NCBI RefSeq assembly: GCF_044324875.1
Contig: NZ_CP172185.1
Reading direction: 5' to 3' (one strand)
Source: Escherichia coli
GTDB lineage: Bacteria; Pseudomonadota; Gammaproteobacteria; Enterobacterales; Enterobacteriaceae
Length of the DNA stretch: 64,000 bases
The notes beneath the pieces were generated by a model. It did no database searches. It was not told the origin of the DNA and worked only from the letters and a program-made list of their open reading frames with translations. Shown piece after piece: positions 8,982 through 57,252 of this stretch. The stretch's first letter is position 1. Each line of letters opens with the position of its first letter. The position numbers were made by a program, and so were the translations under genes.

Positions 8982-9668
8982 TTAGAAGTTCAGATTTTTC
9001 AGTGCATTCAGTGCAGAGCCCACATCCTCAGCGTCGCGCAGGGACAGTGCGCCATAGCCCCCGGCCATGAATGCTTTGGCCTGGGTACGGGAGAGTCCGA
9101 CATCACGCAGGACTCTTTCGATTTTTTTCTGTTCGGGGATTTCCCCGCGGGCCAGTGCGTTCTTGACGTCGCTGATCCGCGCCTCGTCGTTAGACGGGAA
9201 CGTCACCAGGCTGACTTCCCAGAGGTCGATTTCTTTCAGCAGAAAGGCTTCTTTGCTCCGGTCGTATTCCCAGTCTTTCAGGACATACCCAATAGAAAGG
9301 CCGGTTAACGAACCGGCCTTCATGTGTGCATGTGCGCGTTTTGCGAGGGGATCATCATCAATAAGCAACCGTCCCCTGACGTAAAGCCCGACATCGTCTT
9401 CCTTCATTTCGGTGTAAACACCGATGGGTTCATCCATGCGGTGCTGCCAGAGCAGCGCAGGTAACGCTTTTCTGTCACTCCACGCCCGCAGGGAAGCAGC
9501 AAATGCCCCGGACATCACCACATCATCGTGGCTGTCCTTTACACCAAAGACGGAGCCATACCCTTCAAACTCACCGGAGTCACTGACAGATTTCAGACTC
9601 AGCGGTACATCAAGACGTTGTTTCGTCTGCATTGGCGTTATCCTTCTGCTTACCGGCTTTACTGCCAT
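8982..9668 (-). CDS. Prohead protease, HK97 family (true start may be an internal Met)
   Basis: 228-aa ORF between portal and capsid; 5' end overlaps portal gene. Confidence 0.8.
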   Translation of the reverse strand: MAVKPVSRRITPMQTKQRLDVPLSLKSVSDSGEFEGYGSVFGVKDSHDDVVMSGAFAASLRAWSDRKALPALLWQHRMDEPIGVYTEMKEDDVGLYVRGRLLIDDDPLAKRAHAHMKAGSLTGLSIGYVLKDWEYDRSKEAFLLKEIDLWEVSLVTFPSNDEARISDVKNALARGEIPEQKKIERVLRDVGLSRTQAKAFMAGGYGALSLRDAEDVGSALNALKNLNF

Positions 9669-10851
9669 CGGAGGGTTTCGTGGTCATGTTCATCGGTGTG
9701 AGATAGACATCCCCACCGGGACGCGGATTCATATCTTCCAGGTCGCGGCAGTCATTGGGAGAGTAAATTCCCCAGTTGATCCCGGTGGCGTAGGCTTCAA
9801 AACGGGACTTCATATCCCCGCGCAGTAACGCCCCGGCGTTAAATTTGGCGTAATAAACGCCCTGCTTACTTTTTCGTACCAGTCCGGTGTTGATCCGCTG
9901 TTCGATGCGGGTCAGATACGGCACCAGTGAATAGTTGATAAATCCCAGCCCCAGCTCTTCGATATTGTTGAAGGTGGCGCGATCGGTGTTCTGCACCATG
10001 TGCAACGGCACCCGGAACAGACGACAGATTTCTTCAAGCTGAAACTTGCGGGTTTCCAGGAACTGGCTGTCCTCGGCGTTCAGCGCCATCGACTTCCAGT
10101 CCAGCCCCATCTCAAGGATCATCGGGCGGTGAGCATTGCCAAGCCCGGTGTGACGCTCCTCAAAATCTTTCTTCAGGCGCTCATAAGCCTGATCTGACAG
10201 CGTCTGCTCTGTACGCAACACCCCCGACGTCACCGCGCCATTGCTGAACAGTCTGGCCCCGTGCTCTTCGGTCGCTGCCGCCAGCGATATTGCCTCGCGG
10301 GCATAGGCGACGGGATTCAGCCCCACCAGTCCGTCCAGCGTCAGCGTGCGCACATGCCAGATATCCTCCTGGCTCAGTACATCCGTGGAGCCATCCGGGA
10401 ATGTGACCTGATAGACCGGCTCCCAGCTACTGTTAAGCTTCGGTACCACACAACCGGGATCGACGGGCAGCAGTTCAGCCACTTCGCCAAATGCTTTCAC
10501 TTTGTAGGCGTAAAAATTTCCCCTCAGACACAGACAGGTGACCACCAGCTCCCAGAACTCCTGCGGCGTCATATAGCTATTGGGATGCGTGGAGATCAGT
10601 TTATGCAGACGTTCGCCGGTGGCTCTCTGCTTCAGGCTGCCGTTCAGGTGATACAGATTGCAGGGCAACATCCCGACCGACTCTGCCAGCACTCTGACGC
10701 AGGAAAAAACCGCCGTCAGTCGCATGGCTCGCTGACTGCTGATCTGCTTTCCGGTATAGGTGTCGTAGGACAACCCGATGGCATCCGCCAGCTCTGCTGG
10801 CGTGGTCACCGGTGCGTCACTTTTTCGTTGAAATAATCCCGAAAAGAACAC
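9610..10851 (-). CDS. Portal protein
   Basis: 413-aa ORF downstream of large terminase, HK97-type portal features. Confidence 0.8.
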   Translation of the reverse strand: MFFSGLFQRKSDAPVTTPAELADAIGLSYDTYTGKQISSQRAMRLTAVFSCVRVLAESVGMLPCNLYHLNGSLKQRATGERLHKLISTHPNSYMTPQEFWELVVTCLCLRGNFYAYKVKAFGEVAELLPVDPGCVVPKLNSSWEPVYQVTFPDGSTDVLSQEDIWHVRTLTLDGLVGLNPVAYAREAISLAAATEEHGARLFSNGAVTSGVLRTEQTLSDQAYERLKKDFEERHTGLGNAHRPMILEMGLDWKSMALNAEDSQFLETRKFQLEEICRLFRVPLHMVQNTDRATFNNIEELGLGFINYSLVPYLTRIEQRINTGLVRKSKQGVYYAKFNAGALLRGDMKSRFEAYATGINWGIYSPNDCRDLEDMNPRPGGDVYLTPMNMTTKPSDGSKAGKQKDNANADETTS

Positions 10852-11044: not shown

Positions 11045-12778
11045 TTAAAGCGAGCGGATCCCATAGGACTCAATGTGGTCAGACAGCGTGTCTTCTTTCT
11101 CGTACAGCATGGCTCTGCCAACCGCCATAATCAGCGCAACTGCACCATCGATTTTGTTTTCCGCCTGCTCTTTGACGGGCTTCACCACATCATCGTTACC
11201 CGGAATGGTTTTGCCGACCACGTTGCCGATACACCAGGTCATGATGGGATTGCCATCATGATGAAAGCGCCCCGATTCAATTGCCGCTTCCAGCTCTTTC
11301 ATCGGGTCGGACATGTTGGTGTAGTTCTGAATGATAGTGATGGGGTTCAGGTCTTCATCAGCAAGGTCATGTGAGAGCCCGGTCGCCCCGAAGGGGTCGA
11401 TGGGTGACTCGCTGACCGGGCTGATTTTGTTCGCCGCTTTGGCCTCTTCGAGGATGTAGCGATAATCCACCTCCGCACCATCGGTAACGGTCAGAACGCC
11501 CATTTCCACCCATTTCTGAAAGCGTTCGGCTGTCCGGCGATCTTCATTTTTCTCGACGCTGTACACCGTGTCATACGGTACCCAGAAACGCGGGGCTACA
11601 CTGTAGTAATGCGTTTTACCGTCAATCTCGCGGGTATAAAGTCGCGCCATGCTGTTCATATCCAGTTTACGCGCCAGGTCAAAGGCCAGAATGCACGGCT
11701 GCCCCTCGAACTGCTCAAGGGACAGTGATTTATCCTCGCAGCTCTGCCAGCTCACCAGGTTGAAATACGCCGAACGCGCCGACACCCAGATATTGAGGTG
11801 TTTTGTTTTAAAGACGTTTGCCAGACGGGCGTTATTTTTCGCACGCTGCTGCTGACTTAACAAAAATTCGCGATAAACCGACACGCCAATATTTGGATTG
11901 GCTTTTTCCAGCACCTGCGGGTCGGTCCAGTCGTCACCTTCATCAACGGTATAGATGATCCCGAACAGTTCATCGTTAGGCACCGAGCCGTTGAGCATCT
12001 CGATGACTTCCCGCCGTTTGTCGTAGCACGGCCCCTCAATGTTGTACCCGGCGGCAGTGATAGCCCACATCAGTGGCTGACGTCGCGCCCCCATCCCGGT
12101 AAGCATCGTGGTGTAAAGCGCATCTGTGGCGTGCTCGTGATATTCATCCACCACCGCACAGTGGGGTGATGAACCATCACCGGGGTTACCGATCAGCGGT
12201 TCAAAACGCGCACCATCCTCCGGACGGTTCATGTTTGAGGCGTTAACCTCAATCCCGAACGCTTCCGTCAGCATGGGTGTGCGTTTACACATCAGTCTTG
12301 CCGGGCGAAAGACTTCCCATGCCTGTTTCTCTGTCGTGGCACCGGAATACACTTCCGCGCCGAACTCGTTATCACAGGCAAAACAATACAGGGCGACACC
12401 GGCAGAGATTGCCGATTTGCCGTTCTTACGGGGGATTTCGGTATACACCTCACGGAAGCGGCGCAGCCGGGAGCCTTTATTGACCCAGCCAAACGCGCAG
12501 CAGATCACAAAGAGCTGCCACGGCTCCAGCGTGATGGGCATCCTCTTAAATGCCCACTCACCCTTGGTGTGCGGCAACAGCTGAATAAATTTGGCGGCCC
12601 GTTCAGCCAGGTCCTTGTCGAAGCGGTAACGAAACGACTTACTTTTTTCCGCCATCAGGTCATCAAGATGGCGCTGGCAGGCCTGAATCACAAACTGGCA
12701 GGCCACAATCTTTCCGCGCACGACATCACGGGCATACTGATTGGCAGCATTTACGTTGGGGTAAGATTTCCGGCTCAT
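11045..12778 (-). CDS. Terminase large subunit
   Basis: 577-aa ORF with ATPase and nuclease regions, overlapping small terminase by 4 nt. Confidence 0.85.
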
Positions 12779-13278
12779 GATTCGATGATTTTCAGAAACG
12801 GGTTAGTGGTTTTCTTCTGCCCCGCCAGGCCAATCAGACGCTGACGGCTGCTGGGGTCGAGTCCGAGCATTGCCCCCGTGCTGCTCATCTCGGACTCCTG
12901 TTCTTTTTTGGCGGTCAGCTCCGGATTTTTGACCATGCCGCCCATTGCACCGGTGATGGTGTTGCCCTGTCTGGCAATATTTTTCACGGCACGTCGCCAG
13001 AACTCGTAGGCCACGCACCACCGCTCAAGCACCGCGAGGTCAGTCACGCACAGCAGGCCCTGACCGCAGAGTTCTTTAGTTGTCAGTTGCCACATGATCG
13101 TAGCGAGAGGGAGATCTTCTTCAGCGAACCACTCCGGTGGCTCAACACCTTTGATGGGCGTAAAAACAGGTTCATCTTTATTCAGGGCTCGCTTGCCGGG
13201 GTTTCCGGCCAGCGCCTTGCGCGCCGTTGGCTTGGGGCGACGCCCGGAACGCCCCGCCGTTCCAGCCATATGCGGCAC
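12775..13278 (-). CDS. Terminase small subunit (P27 family-like)
   Basis: 167-aa ORF immediately upstream of large terminase. Confidence 0.65.
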
Positions 13279-13394
13279 TCCTGGTTAAATTTCATTTTTC
13301 GCGGGTATAAAAAAACGATGGGGCGGGCAGTCCGGAAGACGTCAGGTCACAGAGATTTGACCCGCCCCTCCCCTCAGACAGTTGAGAGTTATTA
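13279..13394. other. Putative cos / packaging recognition region
   Basis: Inverted repeat GGGGCGGGC...GCCCGCCCC at about 13321-13370 between HNH endonuclease and small terminase. Confidence 0.3.
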
Positions 13395-13745
13395 TCACTT
13401 AAGCCGTTCACGGGCCGTCTTCGCCTTATGGCACGGCCAGCACAGACTCTGCATATTACTGTCGGCATCAGTGCCACCATGTGCTTTAGGGATGATGTGG
13501 TCAACGGTTTTCGCTTCACGCGCCACACCAGCACGCAGACATAACTGACACAGGCCTTTGTCACGTTGCAGCACACGCACACGGATAACATCCCACTTAG
13601 AACCATAACCGCGCTGATGACGGGATTGTCCAGGTTTGTATTGCTTCCAGCCTTCGCTTTTGTGGCTTTCGCAGTAGCCTGAAGGGTCCGTGGTTGTAGA
13701 GCGGCAGCCGCGAACACGGCAGGCTTTTGGGGTTCGTGGGGGCAT
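13395..13745 (-). CDS. HNH endonuclease (packaging-associated)
   Basis: 116-aa ORF, Cys-rich zinc-finger pattern and HNH catalytic core (DHIIPKAHGGTD...CHPCH-like). Confidence 0.85.
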   Translation of the reverse strand: MPPRTPKACRVRGCRSTTTDPSGYCESHKSEGWKQYKPGQSRHQRGYGSKWDVIRVRVLQRDKGLCQLCLRAGVAREAKTVDHIIPKAHGGTDADSNMQSLCWPCHKAKTARERLK

Positions 13746-13876
13746 CCAATCACCTCTTAAATTATTACTATAGTTCTATCTATAACTTCGCAAATAAAAA
13801 TACCGGAGAACTAATCATCAAAAAAGATAATTAGTTCAACCAGCATTAATAATATGGAATATCCAGACAATCTATT

Positions 13877-14332
13877 TCATTTTAAATCTATATATAACAT
13901 TTTCCCTGCAAGCAAGGCCAATTCTGATTTAAAACCCTTTCCGGCCAAGAAAGCCATTTGAAGTTCTCGTAAATTATCCATGGTTTTAGAAATATCATCA
14001 TTTGAGTTAGATGATAGATAAATATTGCACCTAGATTGCAATTCATTAAAGGCTCTGATAATCAACTTTCTATTAACATAACCTTCATCATTTTCTAAAT
14101 TCTTTGGCATAGAAATCAAAGTATTATTATACTCAATGATAGCATCCATCAATTTCAATTTTTTGTCTTCATTATACTGTTTTTTCCATTGCCCTAATGC
14201 GAGAAAACCCACAATCCCTGCGAACAAAGTAACTCCAATACTCGCCAGACTCACAAGAGCAGAAAATTTAGCCCAAAATGCAGCATCTCTGTTAGCTACA
14301 AGAGTTTCATAAGCAATATAAGTAGCGTCCAT
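13877..14332 (-). CDS. Hypothetical single-pass membrane protein (AT-rich cargo)
   Basis: 151-aa ORF with one hydrophobic helix, very AT-rich, in bor-equivalent moron position. Confidence 0.45.
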   Translation of the reverse strand: MDATYIAYETLVANRDAAFWAKFSALVSLASIGVTLFAGIVGFLALGQWKKQYNEDKKLKLMDAIIEYNNTLISMPKNLENDEGYVNRKLIIRAFNELQSRCNIYLSSNSNDDISKTMDNLRELQMAFLAGKGFKSELALLAGKMLYIDLK

Positions 14333-14448
14333 TTACACCTCACTTTATTTTAGAGGTGATTATAGCAAATTACATTCAATCAGGGCTGTACAGTTTTTTA
14401 TCAATTATACTTCGCCATCTCGCTATTATATAACAATATCTTTACATA

Positions 14449-15078
14449 TTGATGGCGTGCCAGCACAATACTGTCACGTACAACCATTCGGATTACTCAG
14501 AGAAAAGTATGATTCAGGATTTACTGATCGAAGCAATTAGTCACGATAGGATGCATAAAAAGTTAAATGAACTGAATTGCTACTTCTACAATCGCAAACA
14601 TGAAACACAAATACGTGATGAGTTAGTTGTTATAATCAATCAAATCAGCACACTAACTGCTTTAAGTGAGCATCCAAAACTCGGTATCGGCGCTGTTGAC
14701 ATATCACTTTATAACCAGTCGATATTGACGCCTGAACATAATGGCAATGTTGCAACCATCGAGATAAAACATCATTACCCAAAAGATTTGCTTTATCGGC
14801 AGGTTCAAGAAGATATCACTTCCGATATTTCAAGAGTAATAGTTTCACCAACTACACACTTTATCCATATAATCCAGCAAAGAACCAGAATTAAAACTCC
14901 TTCTTTTGGTCAAGTGAAATTCCTTGAACGTGATGCAAGTGATATCAGCACTTATGTGCAATATCTTGAGGAGCTAAGTTCATTTCCCAGTAATTTTCAT
15001 AAAAAAAGTGTATGTATTGAGGTAATTGGTGAAATTATGTCGACATATACCTTTAACGTATATTCATTTGACAACTGA
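14449..15078 (+). CDS. Hypothetical protein (AT-rich cargo, opposite to late genes)
   Basis: 209-aa ORF, AT-rich, divergent from 13877-14332; true start may be internal Met near 14509. Confidence 0.45.
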   Translation: MMACQHNTVTYNHSDYSEKSMIQDLLIEAISHDRMHKKLNELNCYFYNRKHETQIRDELVVIINQISTLTALSEHPKLGIGAVDISLYNQSILTPEHNGNVATIEIKHHYPKDLLYRQVQEDITSDISRVIVSPTTHFIHIIQQRTRIKTPSFGQVKFLERDASDISTYVQYLEELSSFPSNFHKKSVCIEVIGEIMSTYTFNVYSFDN

Positions 15079-16097: not shown

Positions 16098-16424
16098 TTA
16101 CTCCTTAGAGCCACCAAACTTATTACCGATTACTCTCATTGCAGCCCCACGAATAGCATCGACACCGATCAGCCCCACCCCACCACCAATGGCAACAGAA
16201 AGCGATTTAGGCCATCCGACATACTCAAGAGCGGATGCAAAAGTCAGCGTCAGAGCGCCACAGAGTAGAATTTCGAGTGTTTTTCGCTTCCAGCCACCAC
16301 CACCGCCAAAATAGGCAATGCGCAAGCCAGCCATAACGATCGACATAATCACTGCGCCCAGTGGTGTGTCTCCACGCCACCAGCTCTGGACCAACTCCAG
16401 CCAGGTATTTGGGTTATGAGGCAT
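16098..16424 (-). CDS. S: Holin, lambda S-like class I
   Basis: 108-aa ORF with three hydrophobic segments and charged C-terminus, immediately upstream of R. Confidence 0.75.
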   Translation of the reverse strand: MPHNPNTWLELVQSWWRGDTPLGAVIMSIVMAGLRIAYFGGGGGWKRKTLEILLCGALTLTFASALEYVGWPKSLSVAIGGGVGLIGVDAIRGAAMRVIGNKFGGSKE

Positions 16425-16755: not shown

Positions 16756-17277
16756 ATGATGAACAAATTAGCACGCTTATTATTAACAGCCAGCTCAATT
16801 GCACCTGTTTGCGCAACTCTATTTTTTATTGGATATGTAAAAGATACGGTTTGGCTGATGCAATATAGCTTATGCGTTGGCATAGCAAGTTGGTTATTAG
16901 CAATAGGCCTGATTCAATATGCTGAGAAACAACTTGAACCTCTGACAAAAAATATTAGTTCAGTTTCTCCCGCTAACAAAGAAGTAACTAATTATTTCTT
17001 AAGCTATTTATTCCCTCTCCTAGGAACAGATTCTATTGCTGAAAATAAAGCATATGCGTTATTCTTTTATTTATCATTGTTATTTTACATCAGCTTTTCC
17101 GAGAACTATAACTTTAACCCAGTATTGTCACTTATCGGTTATAAATTTTACGAAGCTGAAGATGACACCGGCGTAGGTTTTGTATTGATTTCTAAATCAG
17201 TTATTACTGATATTAAAGATATCAAATTTACAGTTATTCAATTAACAGACTACACATTTCTACATGTTAAAGGATAA
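16756..17277 (+). CDS. Multi-pass membrane protein, first gene of AT-rich cargo cassette
   Basis: 173-aa ORF with 3-4 hydrophobic helices, AAGGA ribosome-binding site, opposite strand to flanking late genes. Confidence 0.6.
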   Translation: MMNKLARLLLTASSIAPVCATLFFIGYVKDTVWLMQYSLCVGIASWLLAIGLIQYAEKQLEPLTKNISSVSPANKEVTNYFLSYLFPLLGTDSIAENKAYALFFYLSLLFYISFSENYNFNPVLSLIGYKFYEAEDDTGVGFVLISKSVITDIKDIKFTVIQLTDYTFLHVKG

Positions 17278-17282
17278 TAACC

Positions 17283-18167
17283 ATGGCACTTTTTGCAGTA
17301 ATAGATAATACAATTGCAACGAGAATTGTTAGAGTCGAACTTGATGCAACAGCAAGTACTTCTGTTACGGCCATTTTCCAACAACAGCGTCAATATTTTG
17401 AAAGTCATCATAACAATATGATACCATTCTATGCCGGTTATACACCAAAACATAGTGAGTGTTTTGAAATACAAAACTTTACTGATTCTGCACGCCTGAT
17501 TGACGCAGTCAATAGGCCTACCGCCGTGCCTATCTGGGATCCTAGCCAAATTGATATTGGTTATATTAAAGCATTATTTGTTGGTGTTGACGCGCCAGCA
17601 AACCCCAATATTATTGCACTACAAACTTTCAACAAAAAACAAATCTTAGATACCTCAAAATCATTCTTTGGAAAGCTTTTTGCAAGCAAAACTACCTTTA
17701 GTAAAGCTAATAGCATCGGTTTTAATGTTGATGATAAACTAGTTGCAATAATTATCAATGATACAATACGATTTAAGAGTTTCTTTAATCTAAGAAGCAT
17801 TTTTGACATGTCGTCCTATTTTTCTGCTGCTACTGACCAAGAACTTAATGCATTTAGTCAACTTAGTGTATTTTCTACTCCCCAAGGTTTTGATCTAAAA
17901 TCCGTTGCAGATACAGTGATAAGAAATAAAGTAACACTAATAAATCAGACTGGGATGCTAACACCCCAAAATATGTCAAAGTTTAAATCCGAAGCTGCTA
18001 AAGTTAATTTCCCCTTACAAACCATAATAGTTGGCGGTGTTGAGAAAATTGTCATGCCTTCATCAAAAAAAGAAATAAAAGCCCTTCTTGACTTTCTTGA
18101 GGAAGACATTTGGGTTTCTGGAATAAGTGGAAGACGCTTTAAATCGAATTCAAAGCGCCCAATATAA
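17283..18167 (+). CDS. Hypothetical soluble protein, second gene of cargo cassette
   Basis: 294-aa ORF starting 5 nt after the preceding stop with its own AAAGGA ribosome-binding site; AT-rich. Confidence 0.6.
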   Translation: MALFAVIDNTIATRIVRVELDATASTSVTAIFQQQRQYFESHHNNMIPFYAGYTPKHSECFEIQNFTDSARLIDAVNRPTAVPIWDPSQIDIGYIKALFVGVDAPANPNIIALQTFNKKQILDTSKSFFGKLFASKTTFSKANSIGFNVDDKLVAIIINDTIRFKSFFNLRSIFDMSSYFSAATDQELNAFSQLSVFSTPQGFDLKSVADTVIRNKVTLINQTGMLTPQNMSKFKSEAAKVNFPLQTIIVGGVEKIVMPSSKKEIKALLDFLEEDIWVSGISGRRFKSNSKRPI

Positions 18168-18188: not shown

Positions 18189-18551
18189 TTAACAGGCAAG
18201 AGTGCAAACAATGCCTTCAATGAAACCAAGCGATGTTTGCAACTCTTTCCTGATAGTCCCATCCGAACACTTTCTCTTCTTAGCAATGGCTCGCAATGAA
18301 ATCCCTACCACAAAATGGGCTATAACTAACTCATACTCTTCTGGTTTGTACTTTCTTAATCTAGCTACGCACCCATCGATCATGAGCCCCTCATCATCAT
18401 CACACTGAATCCGGGACTTTTTGCCATGAGGTAAAAGCCCCTTGAAGCCAGCGGCTACCGGTTGCCAGTCCACTCCGCTATTGTCTGAAGCAGCCCAAGC
18501 TCCCCAACGATCCATCACTTCATACATATCACGCATCAACTTTCTCCACAA
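18189..18551 (-). CDS. Late-gene antiterminator Q (DLP12 QuuD-like); start probably at Met 18533
   Basis: ORF shares the WGAWAA...AAGFKGL...CSDG pattern of the small Q family as recalled. Confidence 0.75.
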   Translation of the reverse strand: MWRKLMRDMYEVMDRWGAWAASDNSGVDWQPVAAGFKGLLPHGKKSRIQCDDDEGLMIDGCVARLRKYKPEEYELVIAHFVVGISLRAIAKKRKCSDGTIRKELQTSLGFIEGIVCTLAC

Positions 18552-30895: not shown

Positions 30896-30983
30896 TGATT
30901 TTATTTTGACTGATAGTGACCTGTTCGTTGCAACAAATTGATAAGCAATGCTTTTTTATAATGCCAACTTAGTATAAAAAAGC
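30896..30983. other. attL: phage P' arm and 15-bp att core
   Basis: TTAGTATAAAAAAGC at 30969-30983 is the reverse complement of the lambda core GCTTTTTTATACTAA, preceded by lambda P' arm sequence. Confidence 0.85.
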
Positions 30984-31029
30984 AGGCTTCAACGGATTCA
31001 TTTTTCTATTTCATAGCCCGGAGCAACCT

Positions 31030-32313
31030 GTGAACACATTTTCAGTTTCCCGTCTGGCGCTGGCATTGGCTTTTGGCGTGACGCTGACCGCCTGTAGCTC
31101 AACACCACCCGATCAACGTCCTTCTGATCAAACCGCGCCTGGTACCTCTTCTCGCCCGATTCTGTCGGCAAAAGAAGCGCAGAATTTCGATGCTCAACAC
31201 TATTTTGCGTCCCTGACGCCAGGTGCTGCAGCGTGGAATCCTTCCCCGATTTCCCTGCCTGCGCAACCTGACTTTGTTGTCGGCCCGGCAGGTACTCAAG
31301 GTGTAACGCATACCACGATTCAGGCGGCGGTAGATGCGGCAATTATCAAGCGTACCAACAAGCGCCAGTATATTGCCGTGATGCCTGGTGAGTATCAGGG
31401 AACGGTGTATGTCCCTGCTGCTCCGGGTGGAATTACTCTGTACGGTACAGGTGAAAAACCGATTGATGTGAAGATTGGGCTTTCCCTTGATGGGGGCATG
31501 AGCCCTGCCGACTGGCGTCACGACGTCAACCCGCGCGGCAAATATATGCCAGGTAAACCAGCGTGGTATATGTACGATAGCTGCCAGAGCAAACGCAGCG
31601 ACAGTATCGGTGTTCTCTGCTCTGCGGTCTTCTGGTCACAAAACAATGGCCTGCAACTGCAAAATCTGACCATCGAAAACACGCTGGGCGATAGCGTAGA
31701 TGCGGGTAACCATCCGGCGGTGGCACTGCGTACTGATGGTGACAAAGTGCAGATCAATAACGTCAACATTCTCGGTCGTCAGAATACCTTCTTTGTCACC
31801 AACAGTGGTGTGCAAAACCGTCTGGAAACCAACCGTCAGCCGCGTACTCTGGTGACCAACAGTTACATTGAAGGGGATGTGGATATCGTTTCTGGTCGCG
31901 GCGCAGTGGTGTTCGATAATACCGAATTCCGCGTGGTGAACTCTCGTACTCAGCAAGAAGCTTATGTGTTTGCACCGGCAACACTGTCTAACATCTATTA
32001 CGGTTTCCTCGCCGTAAACAGCCGTTTCAATGCTTCAGGTGATGGCGTGGCGCAACTGGGCCGCTCGCTGGATGTTGATGCTAATACCAACGGTCAGGTG
32101 GTGATCCGTGATAGTGCCATCAACGAAGGTTTTAACACGGCGAAACCGTGGGCCGATGCGGTGATTTCCAATCGTCCGTTTGCGGGTAACACCGGCAGCG
32201 TTGATGATAACGACGAAGTACAGCGTAATCTGAATGACACTAACTACAACCGCATGTGGGAATACAATAACCGCGGCGTGGGTAGCAAAGTGGTTGCAGA
32301 GGCGAAGAAGTAA
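31030..32313 (+). CDS. ybhC: Outer-membrane lipoprotein YbhC (pectinesterase-like), GTG start
   Basis: 427-aa product with lipoprotein signal LTACSS; K-12 synteny. Confidence 0.9.
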   Translation: MNTFSVSRLALALAFGVTLTACSSTPPDQRPSDQTAPGTSSRPILSAKEAQNFDAQHYFASLTPGAAAWNPSPISLPAQPDFVVGPAGTQGVTHTTIQAAVDAAIIKRTNKRQYIAVMPGEYQGTVYVPAAPGGITLYGTGEKPIDVKIGLSLDGGMSPADWRHDVNPRGKYMPGKPAWYMYDSCQSKRSDSIGVLCSAVFWSQNNGLQLQNLTIENTLGDSVDAGNHPAVALRTDGDKVQINNVNILGRQNTFFVTNSGVQNRLETNRQPRTLVTNSYIEGDVDIVSGRGAVVFDNTEFRVVNSRTQQEAYVFAPATLSNIYYGFLAVNSRFNASGDGVAQLGRSLDVDANTNGQVVIRDSAINEGFNTAKPWADAVISNRPFAGNTGSVDDNDEVQRNLNDTNYNRMWEYNNRGVGSKVVAEAKK

Positions 32314-56350: not shown

Positions 56351-56426
56351 TGGTGGGTCGTGCAGGATTCGAACCTGCGACCAATTGATTAAAAGTCAAC
56401 TGCTCTACCAACTGAGCTAACGACCC
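56351..56426 (-). tRNA. lysQ: tRNA-Lys (UUU)
   Basis: Reverse complement is a 76-nt tRNA-Lys with CCA end; position 7 of the lysT operon. Confidence 0.95.
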
Positions 56427-56459
56427 CTTGCGGGATTATGCTGCTTTAATCATTCAGGA

Positions 56460-56535
56460 TGGTGGGTCGTGCAGGATTCGAACCTGCGACCAATTGATTA
56501 AAAGTCAACTGCTCTACCAACTGAGCTAACGACCC
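56460..56535 (-). tRNA. lysZ: tRNA-Lys (UUU)
   Basis: Identical 76-nt tRNA-Lys copy. Confidence 0.95.
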
Positions 56536-56583
56536 ATACGGGTGTTACCTGAAAGATTTCTACTCGGAACCAATCTTTAAAAT

Positions 56584-56600
56584 TGGTGGGTCGTGCAGGA
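56584..56600 (-). repeat. tRNA-Lys 3'-end fragment at start of a ~70-bp spacer repeat
   Basis: TGGTGGGTCGTGCAGGA then diverges; the spacer recurs at 57077-57150. Confidence 0.5.
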
Positions 56601-56681
56601 TGACTCGCTTCGCTCGCCCTACGGGCCGTTGCTGGCGCAACGTTATCCTTCACGCTTAACATCTGAGTTTGATGTTAAAAT

Positions 56682-56757
56682 TGGTGGGTCGTGCAGGATT
56701 CGAACCTGCGACCAATTGATTAAAAGTCAACTGCTCTACCAACTGAGCTAACGACCC
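56682..56757 (-). tRNA. lysY: tRNA-Lys (UUU)
   Basis: 76-nt tRNA-Lys. Confidence 0.95.
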
Positions 56758-56760
56758 GAG

Positions 56761-56836
56761 TGGTGGGTGATGACGGGATCGAACCGCCGACCCCCTCCTT
56801 GTAAGGGAGGTGCTCTCCCAGCTGAGCTAATCACCC
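56761..56836 (-). tRNA. valZ: tRNA-Val (UAC)
   Basis: Reverse complement GGGTGATTAGCTCAGCTGGGAGAGCACCTCCCTTACAAGGAGG...CCA. Confidence 0.95.
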
Positions 56837-56887
56837 GATACTGCGCTGGATACTACAAACTACTTCCACCGAACCCACCGTAATTAG

Positions 56888-56963
56888 TGGTGGGTCGTGC
56901 AGGATTCGAACCTGCGACCAATTGATTAAAAGTCAACTGCTCTACCAACTGAGCTAACGACCC
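56888..56963 (-). tRNA. lysW: tRNA-Lys (UUU)
   Basis: 76-nt tRNA-Lys. Confidence 0.95.
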
Positions 56964-56965
56964 GG

Positions 56966-57041
56966 TGGTGGGTGATGACGGGATCGAACCGCCGACCCCC
57001 TCCTTGTAAGGGAGGTGCTCTCCCAGCTGAGCTAATCACCC
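56966..57041 (-). tRNA. valT: tRNA-Val (UAC)
   Basis: 76-nt tRNA-Val. Confidence 0.95.
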
Positions 57042-57076
57042 GATACTACGCTGGATACTACAACTAACTAGGTTAG

Positions 57077-57093
57077 TGGTGGATCGTGCAGGA
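57077..57093 (-). repeat. Second tRNA 3'-end fragment with spacer repeat
   Basis: TGGTGGATCGTGCAGGA followed by the same ~55-nt spacer as at 56601. Confidence 0.5.
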
Positions 57094-57176
57094 TGACTCG
57101 ACTTCGTCTCGCCCTTCGGGCCGTTGCTGATGCAACGTTATCCTTCACGTTTTACTACCGCTTCCACCTTAGCGAT

Positions 57177-57252
57177 TGGTGGGTCGTGCAGGATTCGAAC
57201 CTGCGACCAATTGATTAAAAGTCAACTGCTCTACCAACTGAGCTAACGACCC
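57177..57252 (-). tRNA. lysT: tRNA-Lys (UUU)
   Basis: 76-nt tRNA-Lys, first gene of the operon. Confidence 0.95.

Follow-up and report, generated by a model that had tools for sequence, protein, structure and literature searches.

The spacer between the HNH endonuclease gene and the small terminase gene of a prophage resident in this Escherichia coli chromosome is very probably (estimated probability about 0.9) the cos site of a temperate phage of the SfV/SfI type, as judged from its identity to a phage with mapped virion ends. A candidate cos site at this place had been proposed in a preliminary description of the window, the whole stretch of 64,000 nucleotides analyzed here, and the mapped ends of SfI, which share 55 identical nucleotides with the window, support this proposal. 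The site as such is already known from SfI and SfV; its position in the window could be refined to the base by homology.

The region is 97 to 99% identical on the DNA level to the Shigella phages SfV, SfI, SfII, and SfIV, and the linear GenBank records of all four are linearized within the corresponding spacer. The order of the HNH, small terminase, and large terminase genes in these phages is that of the window, the small terminases are 98.8 to 99% identical (98.8% for the SfI protein), and the same 55 nt are present, from a G-rich box to the end of TGCCCGCCCC. From this box up to the end of the cohesive sequence, the minus strand of the window is identical to SfI; the next base is A in the window but G in SfI. 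Run-off sequencing of SfI virion DNA revealed a 10-nt gap compared to the prophage, 5'-TGCCCGCCCC-3', and the authors assigned packaging to a cos mechanism and excluded headful packaging (PMC3636060). The SfI record ends with ...GGACTGCCCGCCCC, its last bases being exactly the 10 nt of the gap, and restarts with GTCGTTTTTTT / GTCGTTTTTTTATACCCGCG. The 55-nt identity with SfI places the cohesive end at positions 13329..13320 of the window. The SfV record (U82619.2) ends with ...GACGTCT / ...GTGACCTGACGTCT and starts with TCCGGACTGCCCGCCCC; it is linearized 7 nt upstream of the SfI nick (window 13336/13337), although both sequences are identical there. The published SfV and SfI descriptions of the same cos site disagree at the base level.

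The genes that flank the spacer are those named in the preliminary description, in agreement with Pfam matches, and all genes around it are located on the minus strand:

13395-13745, minus strand: HNH endonuclease gene, 116 aa, directly preceding cos (PF01844, E 1.6e-15)
12775-13269, minus strand: small terminase gene, 164 aa (PF05119 Terminase_4, P27 family, E 2.3e-21)
11045-12778, minus strand: large terminase gene, 577 aa, encoding packaging ATPase and nuclease (PF03354 and PF20441)
9610-10851, minus strand: portal gene

The boundaries of the spacer needed a correction. The interval 13279-13394 given in the preliminary description assumed a GTG start codon of the small terminase at 13278. 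The homologues from SfV, SfI, and RefSeq, the latter named "phage terminase small subunit P27 family", start at the position of an ATG at 13269, and a Shine-Dalgarno sequence AGGAG is present at 13278-13282. The small terminase most likely starts at this ATG behind the AGGAG, and the corrected spacer comprises positions 13270-13394.

The prophage encodes an HNH protein, a P27-family small terminase, an HK97-type large terminase, a portal protein, and a prohead protease, and these five open reading frames are intact with full-length matches to their families. This speaks against an inactive relic, which would be defective or would package its DNA by another route so that no cutting occurs at this site. 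The cos block is also identical to that of the plaque-forming phage SfI, and an HNH-cos-small terminase block with 80 to 99% identity is kept in 1,123 of the 5,426 complete E. coli genomes. On the other side, the prophage is truncated by the window within its tail genes and may be incomplete, and e14, a related element in E. coli K-12, is a defective one. Taken together, a relic is very improbable.

The assignment to an HK97-like packaging module, also part of the preliminary description, was borne out for two of the proteins. The HNH protein is 40% identical to HK97 gp74 over 65 aa, and the large terminase can be aligned by BLASTP over its full length with HK97 gp2 (25% identity, E 5e-29), with PF03354 and PF20441 found in both. 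The HNH proteins (PF01844) and the large terminases of HK97 and the window are homologous, and the HNH gene is positioned directly upstream of cos and the terminase genes, as expected for HK97-type HNH-dependent packaging. The best relative of the window HNH protein with a solved structure is the GVE2 HNH nicking endonuclease (5h0m_A, E 1.3e-11, residues 1-114). For the small terminase, no relative with a solved structure was found. HK97 gp1 displays no detectable similarity to it (BLASTP E 7.2) and has no PF05119 match, and a small terminase of the HK97 gp1 type was rejected on the basis of BLASTP, Pfam, and solved structures. Headful (pac) packaging was rejected as well: the large terminase has its homologue in HK97, a cos-type enzyme, and SfI possesses defined ends.

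On the minus strand, the cos site would be composed of the following elements, in the direction from the HNH gene to the small terminase gene:

13361..13377, minus strand: G-rich box CTGAGGGGAGGGGCGGG, 12 G of 17, the last 8 nt being the upstream arm of an inverted repeat
13333..13360, minus strand: 28-nt spacer, starting with a conserved TCAAATC (13354-13360) and with a variable center
13330..13332, minus strand: GAC, directly 5' of the cohesive end
13320..13329, minus strand: cohesive end 5'-TGCCCGCCCC-3' (plus strand GGGGCGGGCA), 10 nt, identical to the mapped SfI end
13283..13319, minus strand: downstream block ATCG-TTTTTTT-ATACCCGCGAAAAATGAAATTTAACC, the predicted binding region of the small terminase (cosB-like)

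The left boundary of the SfI gap coincides with the GAC, the sequence GGGGCGGGCA occurs only once in the window, and the cohesive end contains the second arm of the inverted repeat. The downstream block comprises the T-run, ACCCGCG, and an A-tract and extends to the ribosome-binding site of the small terminase. Within the family, conservation was judged from 69 unique sequences of E. coli, Salmonella, and Klebsiella. In these relatives, the G-rich box and TCAAATC are highly conserved, conservation across the cos region is lowest in the center of the spacer (about 13336-13349), and the block from GGAC to the ATG of the small terminase is nearly invariant.

The GC-rich inverted repeat reported for positions of about 13321-13370 is present but shorter than the 9 bp ascribed to it. 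Perfect pairing is limited to 8 bp, GGGGCGGG (13320-13327) with CCCGCCCC (13361-13368), separated by a loop of 33 nt; a ninth pair does not form, with C at 13328 and A at 13360. With 8 bp as the minimum length of a perfect repeat and 60 nt as the maximum loop, 105 of 2,000 shuffled versions of the 116-nt spacer (about 5%) and 107 of 1,102 tiles of 116 nt across the window (about 10%) contained such a repeat. An 8-bp inverted repeat alone is not beyond chance, and the repeat was rejected as evidence in itself.

The idea that the repeat marks the cos site, implied in the preliminary description, does not hold either: its arms belong to the cohesive end and to the separate G-rich box, and in relatives they are no longer complementary. 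It extends over 8 bp in the SfV-like group only. One E. coli subgroup with the same cohesive end carries GGGGAGGGGGAGG in its G-rich box without a compensating change in the end, leaving at most 5 bp. Complementarity of at most 5 bp, again without compensating changes, was also found in HK97 and in the Klebsiella, Burkholderia, Pseudomonas, Moraxella, and Psychrobacter phages. Preservation of the repeat by compensating changes was therefore rejected. Since box-end complementarity is not conserved, the inverted repeat is incidental and, on this comparison, a by-product of two elements of opposite composition, the G-rich box and the C-rich cohesive end. The conserved features in the compared sequences are two separate elements at a fixed distance and not the repeat.

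The repeat might nevertheless function as such, either as a palindromic site for a dimeric protein or as a cruciform marking the cleavage position. Its arms are perfectly complementary over 8 bp, both reside within highly conserved blocks of the SfV-like group, and in all lineages an upstream G-rich stretch stands opposite a C-rich cohesive end in a loose, strand-inverted symmetry. The frequency of such 8-bp repeats by chance and the loss of complementarity in relatives argue against a function, and the center of symmetry (about 13344) is 15 to 25 nt away from both mapped nicks, which makes this explanation highly improbable.

A third possibility considers the repeat together with the TTTTTTT of the minus strand as an intrinsic terminator between the terminase operon and the lysis and HNH genes. 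On this strand, seven consecutive T indeed come 4 nt after GGGGCGGG...CCCGCCCC, and the predicted minimum-energy RNA fold pairs both arms. The loop of 33 nt, a terminator scan of 12500-14500 without a match, a fold that is no better than that of shuffled sequences (z = -0.62; equaled or surpassed by 57 of 200 shuffles), and a search of Rfam without a match at E values up to 1 led to rejection of this candidate. Moreover, the stem is lost in relatives that retain the T-run, and in lambdoid phages, late transcription must cross cos to reach the terminase genes from the lysis genes, a read-through with which a terminator at this position would be in conflict. The chance that a terminator is present is very slight indeed. 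A box and a cohesive end at a fixed distance remain the favored description of this sequence.

Evaluation of this description beyond the SfV-like group needs to consider how the relatives were obtained. They were picked by protein similarity only, plus phages with record ends that mark, or were assumed to mark, the virion ends; distant phages were gathered by tblastn and an alignment-based scan. The close relatives from viral contigs were all about 99% identical in their small terminase and are informative for conservation within the family only. A total of 12 lineages could be aligned without gaps as a G-rich box, 28 nt, (G/C/T)AC, the cut, and a C-rich end of 9 to 10 nt. The box contained 10 to 14 G in 17 positions and was in the same register in 12/12 lineages, as were the 28-nt length of the spacer and the (G/C/T)AC. 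For HK97 and the Klebsiella phages, the spacer also starts with TCAAATC. With ^ indicating the cut, the ends outside the SfV-like group are:

HK97: GAC^CGCCGCCAAA, record end, 10-nt 3' overhang
Burkholderia phiBtTUL1a: GAC^CGCCCGCTTC, as reported for the cohesive end of phiE125 and phi644-2 (PMC2920897)
Bacillus phage Gamma: TAC^CGCCGCCCC, the same 9 nt at both record ends
Mycobacterium phage Cjw1: GAC^CGCTTGTCA, record end
Yersinia phage YeP1: TAC^, the record ends exactly at TAC

Four of these lineages have ends known from publications or record termini, HK97, phiE125/phi644-2, Bacillus Gamma, and Mycobacterium Cjw1, and the cohesive end of the window is in register with them. Phages of Klebsiella, Pseudomonas, Moraxella, and Psychrobacter match the same register, with putative ends.

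The cos site of HK97 agrees with that of the window in the G-rich box, TCAAATC, the 28-nt spacer, GAC, the cut, and the 10-nt C-rich end that follows. Downstream, its CCCG plus A/T tract, which is bound by the HK97 small terminase, is comparable to the block in the window. The sequence of the cohesive end is different, CGCCGCCAAA in HK97 versus TGCCCGCCCC in the window, and so is the distance from the HNH stop codon to cos, about 320 nt versus 65 nt. The overhang of HK97 is given as 10 nt in a figure legend but as 12 nt in the Discussion of the same publication (PMC9410871); it was taken as 10 nt, in agreement with PMC11331095.

The Burkholderia phages phiE125 and phi644-2 have an experimentally described end, 10-nt 3' extensions with the sequence 5'-CGCCCGCTTC-3' (PMC2920897), which is exactly in the predicted register after GAC. 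Their P27-family small terminase is about 50% identical to that of the window, and their downstream box CGCGAAATTAAAAATTCAGGAG resembles CGCGAAAAATGAAATTTAACCAGGAG of the window; the class of the host phylum, the siphovirus tail, and the sequence of the cohesive end are different. In Bacillus phage Gamma, the G-rich box GGGTAGGGGCGGG is identical in 12 of 13 positions to GGGGAGGGGCGGG of the window and is followed by 28 nt, TAC, the cut, and CGCCGCCCC. This phage differs by its Gram-positive host, an end of 9 nt, and an AC^CG boundary compared to AC^TG in the window.

An independent sample of 51 dereplicated viral contigs or loci, chosen only by homology of their small terminase to that of phage Gamma, contained the G-rich box in 30 cases. 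In this sample, the distance from the box to AC[CT][GA] peaked sharply at 32 to 33 nt, with 12 observed loci compared to about 1 expected from shuffled sequences, and the AC motif was at the expected distance in about half of the 30 loci with a box. The layout is frequent but not universal. Only 6 nt separate the HNH gene from the small terminase gene in Vibrio phage H2 (KY658673.3), and neither a G-rich box nor the AC^CG layout was found in the fetched locus; the cos site of this phage must be located elsewhere or be built differently. A loose version of the pattern (at least 10 G in 17 positions, 27 to 30 nt, AC[CT]G) yielded a handful of chance matches in 64 kb. It was rejected as a stand-alone detector; the rule needs the context of the HNH and terminase genes.

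These data can be combined into a model of the cutting reaction. A staggered cut leaving a 10-nt cohesive end of this sequence has been shown in the relative SfI. In the window, concatemeric DNA would be cut by two staggered nicks, one in the minus strand between 13320 and 13319 and the other in the plus strand between 13329 and 13330 (CA^GTC), yielding 10-nt 3' overhangs as in HK97. We infer the 3' polarity from the SfI run-off reads, which left a gap and not an overlap, and from the homology with HK97.

Nicking at CG^GT (AC^CG) has been published for HNH enzymes linked to terminases, among them N.phiGamma and the GVE2 enzyme (PMC3592412), and in phage Gamma, this AC^CG specificity falls exactly on the left edge of the cohesive end. 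Owing to these related nickases, the plus-strand nick at CA^GTC is tentatively assigned to the HNH enzyme, and the nuclease of the large terminase would make the other nick, 10 nt away. The authors of the HK97 study also raised the possibility that the large terminase cuts the other strand (PMC11331095). The match of the AC^YG boundary with the HNH nicking specificity suggests, without proving it, a division of labor in which each of the two enzymes, HNH and large terminase, cuts its own strand. HK97 gp74 is reported to cut DNA non-specifically (PMC3592412), so that a sequence specificity of the proteobacterial HNH enzymes at GAC^ is only putative, and the boundary in the window reads AC^TG and not AC^CG.

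The small terminase may bind to the downstream A/T-tract block at 13319..13283, by analogy with HK97, the small terminase of which binds to positions +15..+29, composed of CCCG and then an A/T tract (PMC11331095). Boxes of the CCGCGAAAT type are kept in Burkholderia, Pseudomonas, and Moraxella phages with P27-family small terminases that are 46 to 51% identical, and a Psychrobacter phage with a 41% identical small terminase has a degenerate GCGTTTAATT box. A box resembling AAATGAAATTT (window 13283-13300) is located just upstream of the ribosome-binding site of the small terminase, and distant phages that encode P27-family small terminases, from Firmicutes and from metagenomes, have boxes of this kind as well (L129-L184; e.g., CCCTAAATGAAATTT). 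They may represent a conserved recognition site of the P27-family small terminase. The G-rich box, about three helical turns upstream of the plus-strand nick, would position the HNH enzyme or the large terminase; HK97 keeps this box despite its unrelated small terminase, which makes one of these two proteins the likelier reader.

A comparison with lambda separates the general principle from the particular enzymes. Lambda leaves 12-nt 5' overhangs, its gpA belongs to a different family from the large terminase of the window, and the lambda terminase is not known to have an HNH partner. The large terminase of the window matches only PF03354 and PF20441, aligns with HK97 gp2, and is not of the lambda type. 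A lambda-type cos was rejected: the cosN sequence GGGCGGCGACCT is absent in or near the spacer at up to 2 mismatches, and the remainder of the window has four weak matches only, no more than expected by chance. The upstream G-rich box is placed like the lambda cosQ. The lambda cos otherwise works in a similar way, with a staggered nick site and a downstream site for the small terminase beside its own gene (PMC11331095, references therein).

The element as a whole belongs to the SfV/e14-like prophages; its head is of the HK97 type, its tail is contractile, and its regulation is lambdoid. Its tail genes are cut by the start of the window, and the integrase end adjoins ybhC at about 30.9 kb (about 30900-31030), with mod, pgl, and ybh genes beyond; ybhC is in the neighborhood of the lambda attachment site. 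SfI, in contrast, is integrated at thrW (tRNA-Thr) next to proA, and the relative in E. coli A27 resides likewise at the tRNA-Thr next to proA. This indicates that the integration module of the same phage type is a different one in this case. Seven tRNA genes (five Lys-UUU, two Val-UAC) are clustered at 56351-57252 on the minus strand and represent ordinary chromosomal context.

The accessory cargo also differs from that of the Shigella SfI-type phages by a Kiwa anti-phage defense pair (16756-18167, plus strand) inside the prophage and an AT-rich island:

18189-18551, minus strand: Q antiterminator, flanking the Kiwa pair
17283-18167, plus strand: KwaB (PADLOC E 2.3e-150; PF16162)
16756-17277, plus strand: KwaA (PADLOC E 1.9e-83)
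16098-16424, minus strand: holin, flanking the Kiwa pair on the other side
14449-15078, plus strand: open reading frame in the second AT-rich island, 209 aa, TTG start
13877-14332, minus strand: open reading frame in the second AT-rich island, 151 aa

The Kiwa island has a GC content of 33 to 39% compared to about 50% around it. The second island (13800-15000, 30 to 36% GC) is located between the Rz/Rz1 lysis genes and the HNH gene, and its two open reading frames (13877-14332 and 14449-15078) had no Pfam or PADLOC match. The relative in E. coli A27 contains different genes in this slot, which looks like an exchangeable cargo position.

To understand the biological meaning, two levels should be kept apart. 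For the prophage family present in about one-fifth of the complete E. coli genomes, the packaging cut site is now fixed to the base by homology with the mapped SfI site. The wider statement is tentative and, as a whole, rather doubtful: that a base-precise layout is common to HNH-associated cos sites of Proteobacteria, Firmicutes, and Actinobacteria, that its AC^YG represents the nicking specificity of the HNH enzyme, and that the HNH enzyme and the large terminase contribute one nick each, with the G-rich box positioning both. No description of such a cross-phylum layout or of its match to the HNH nicking specificity was found in the searchable literature, and both may already be known; they are the only parts that might be new. 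If the pattern holds, the rule of a G-rich box, about 31 nt, AC, the cut, and 9 to 10 nt would make cos ends predictable from the sequence and would serve many HNH-carrying phages and prophages. The layout also offers a direct test of the question left open by the HK97 publications, which enzyme cuts which strand.
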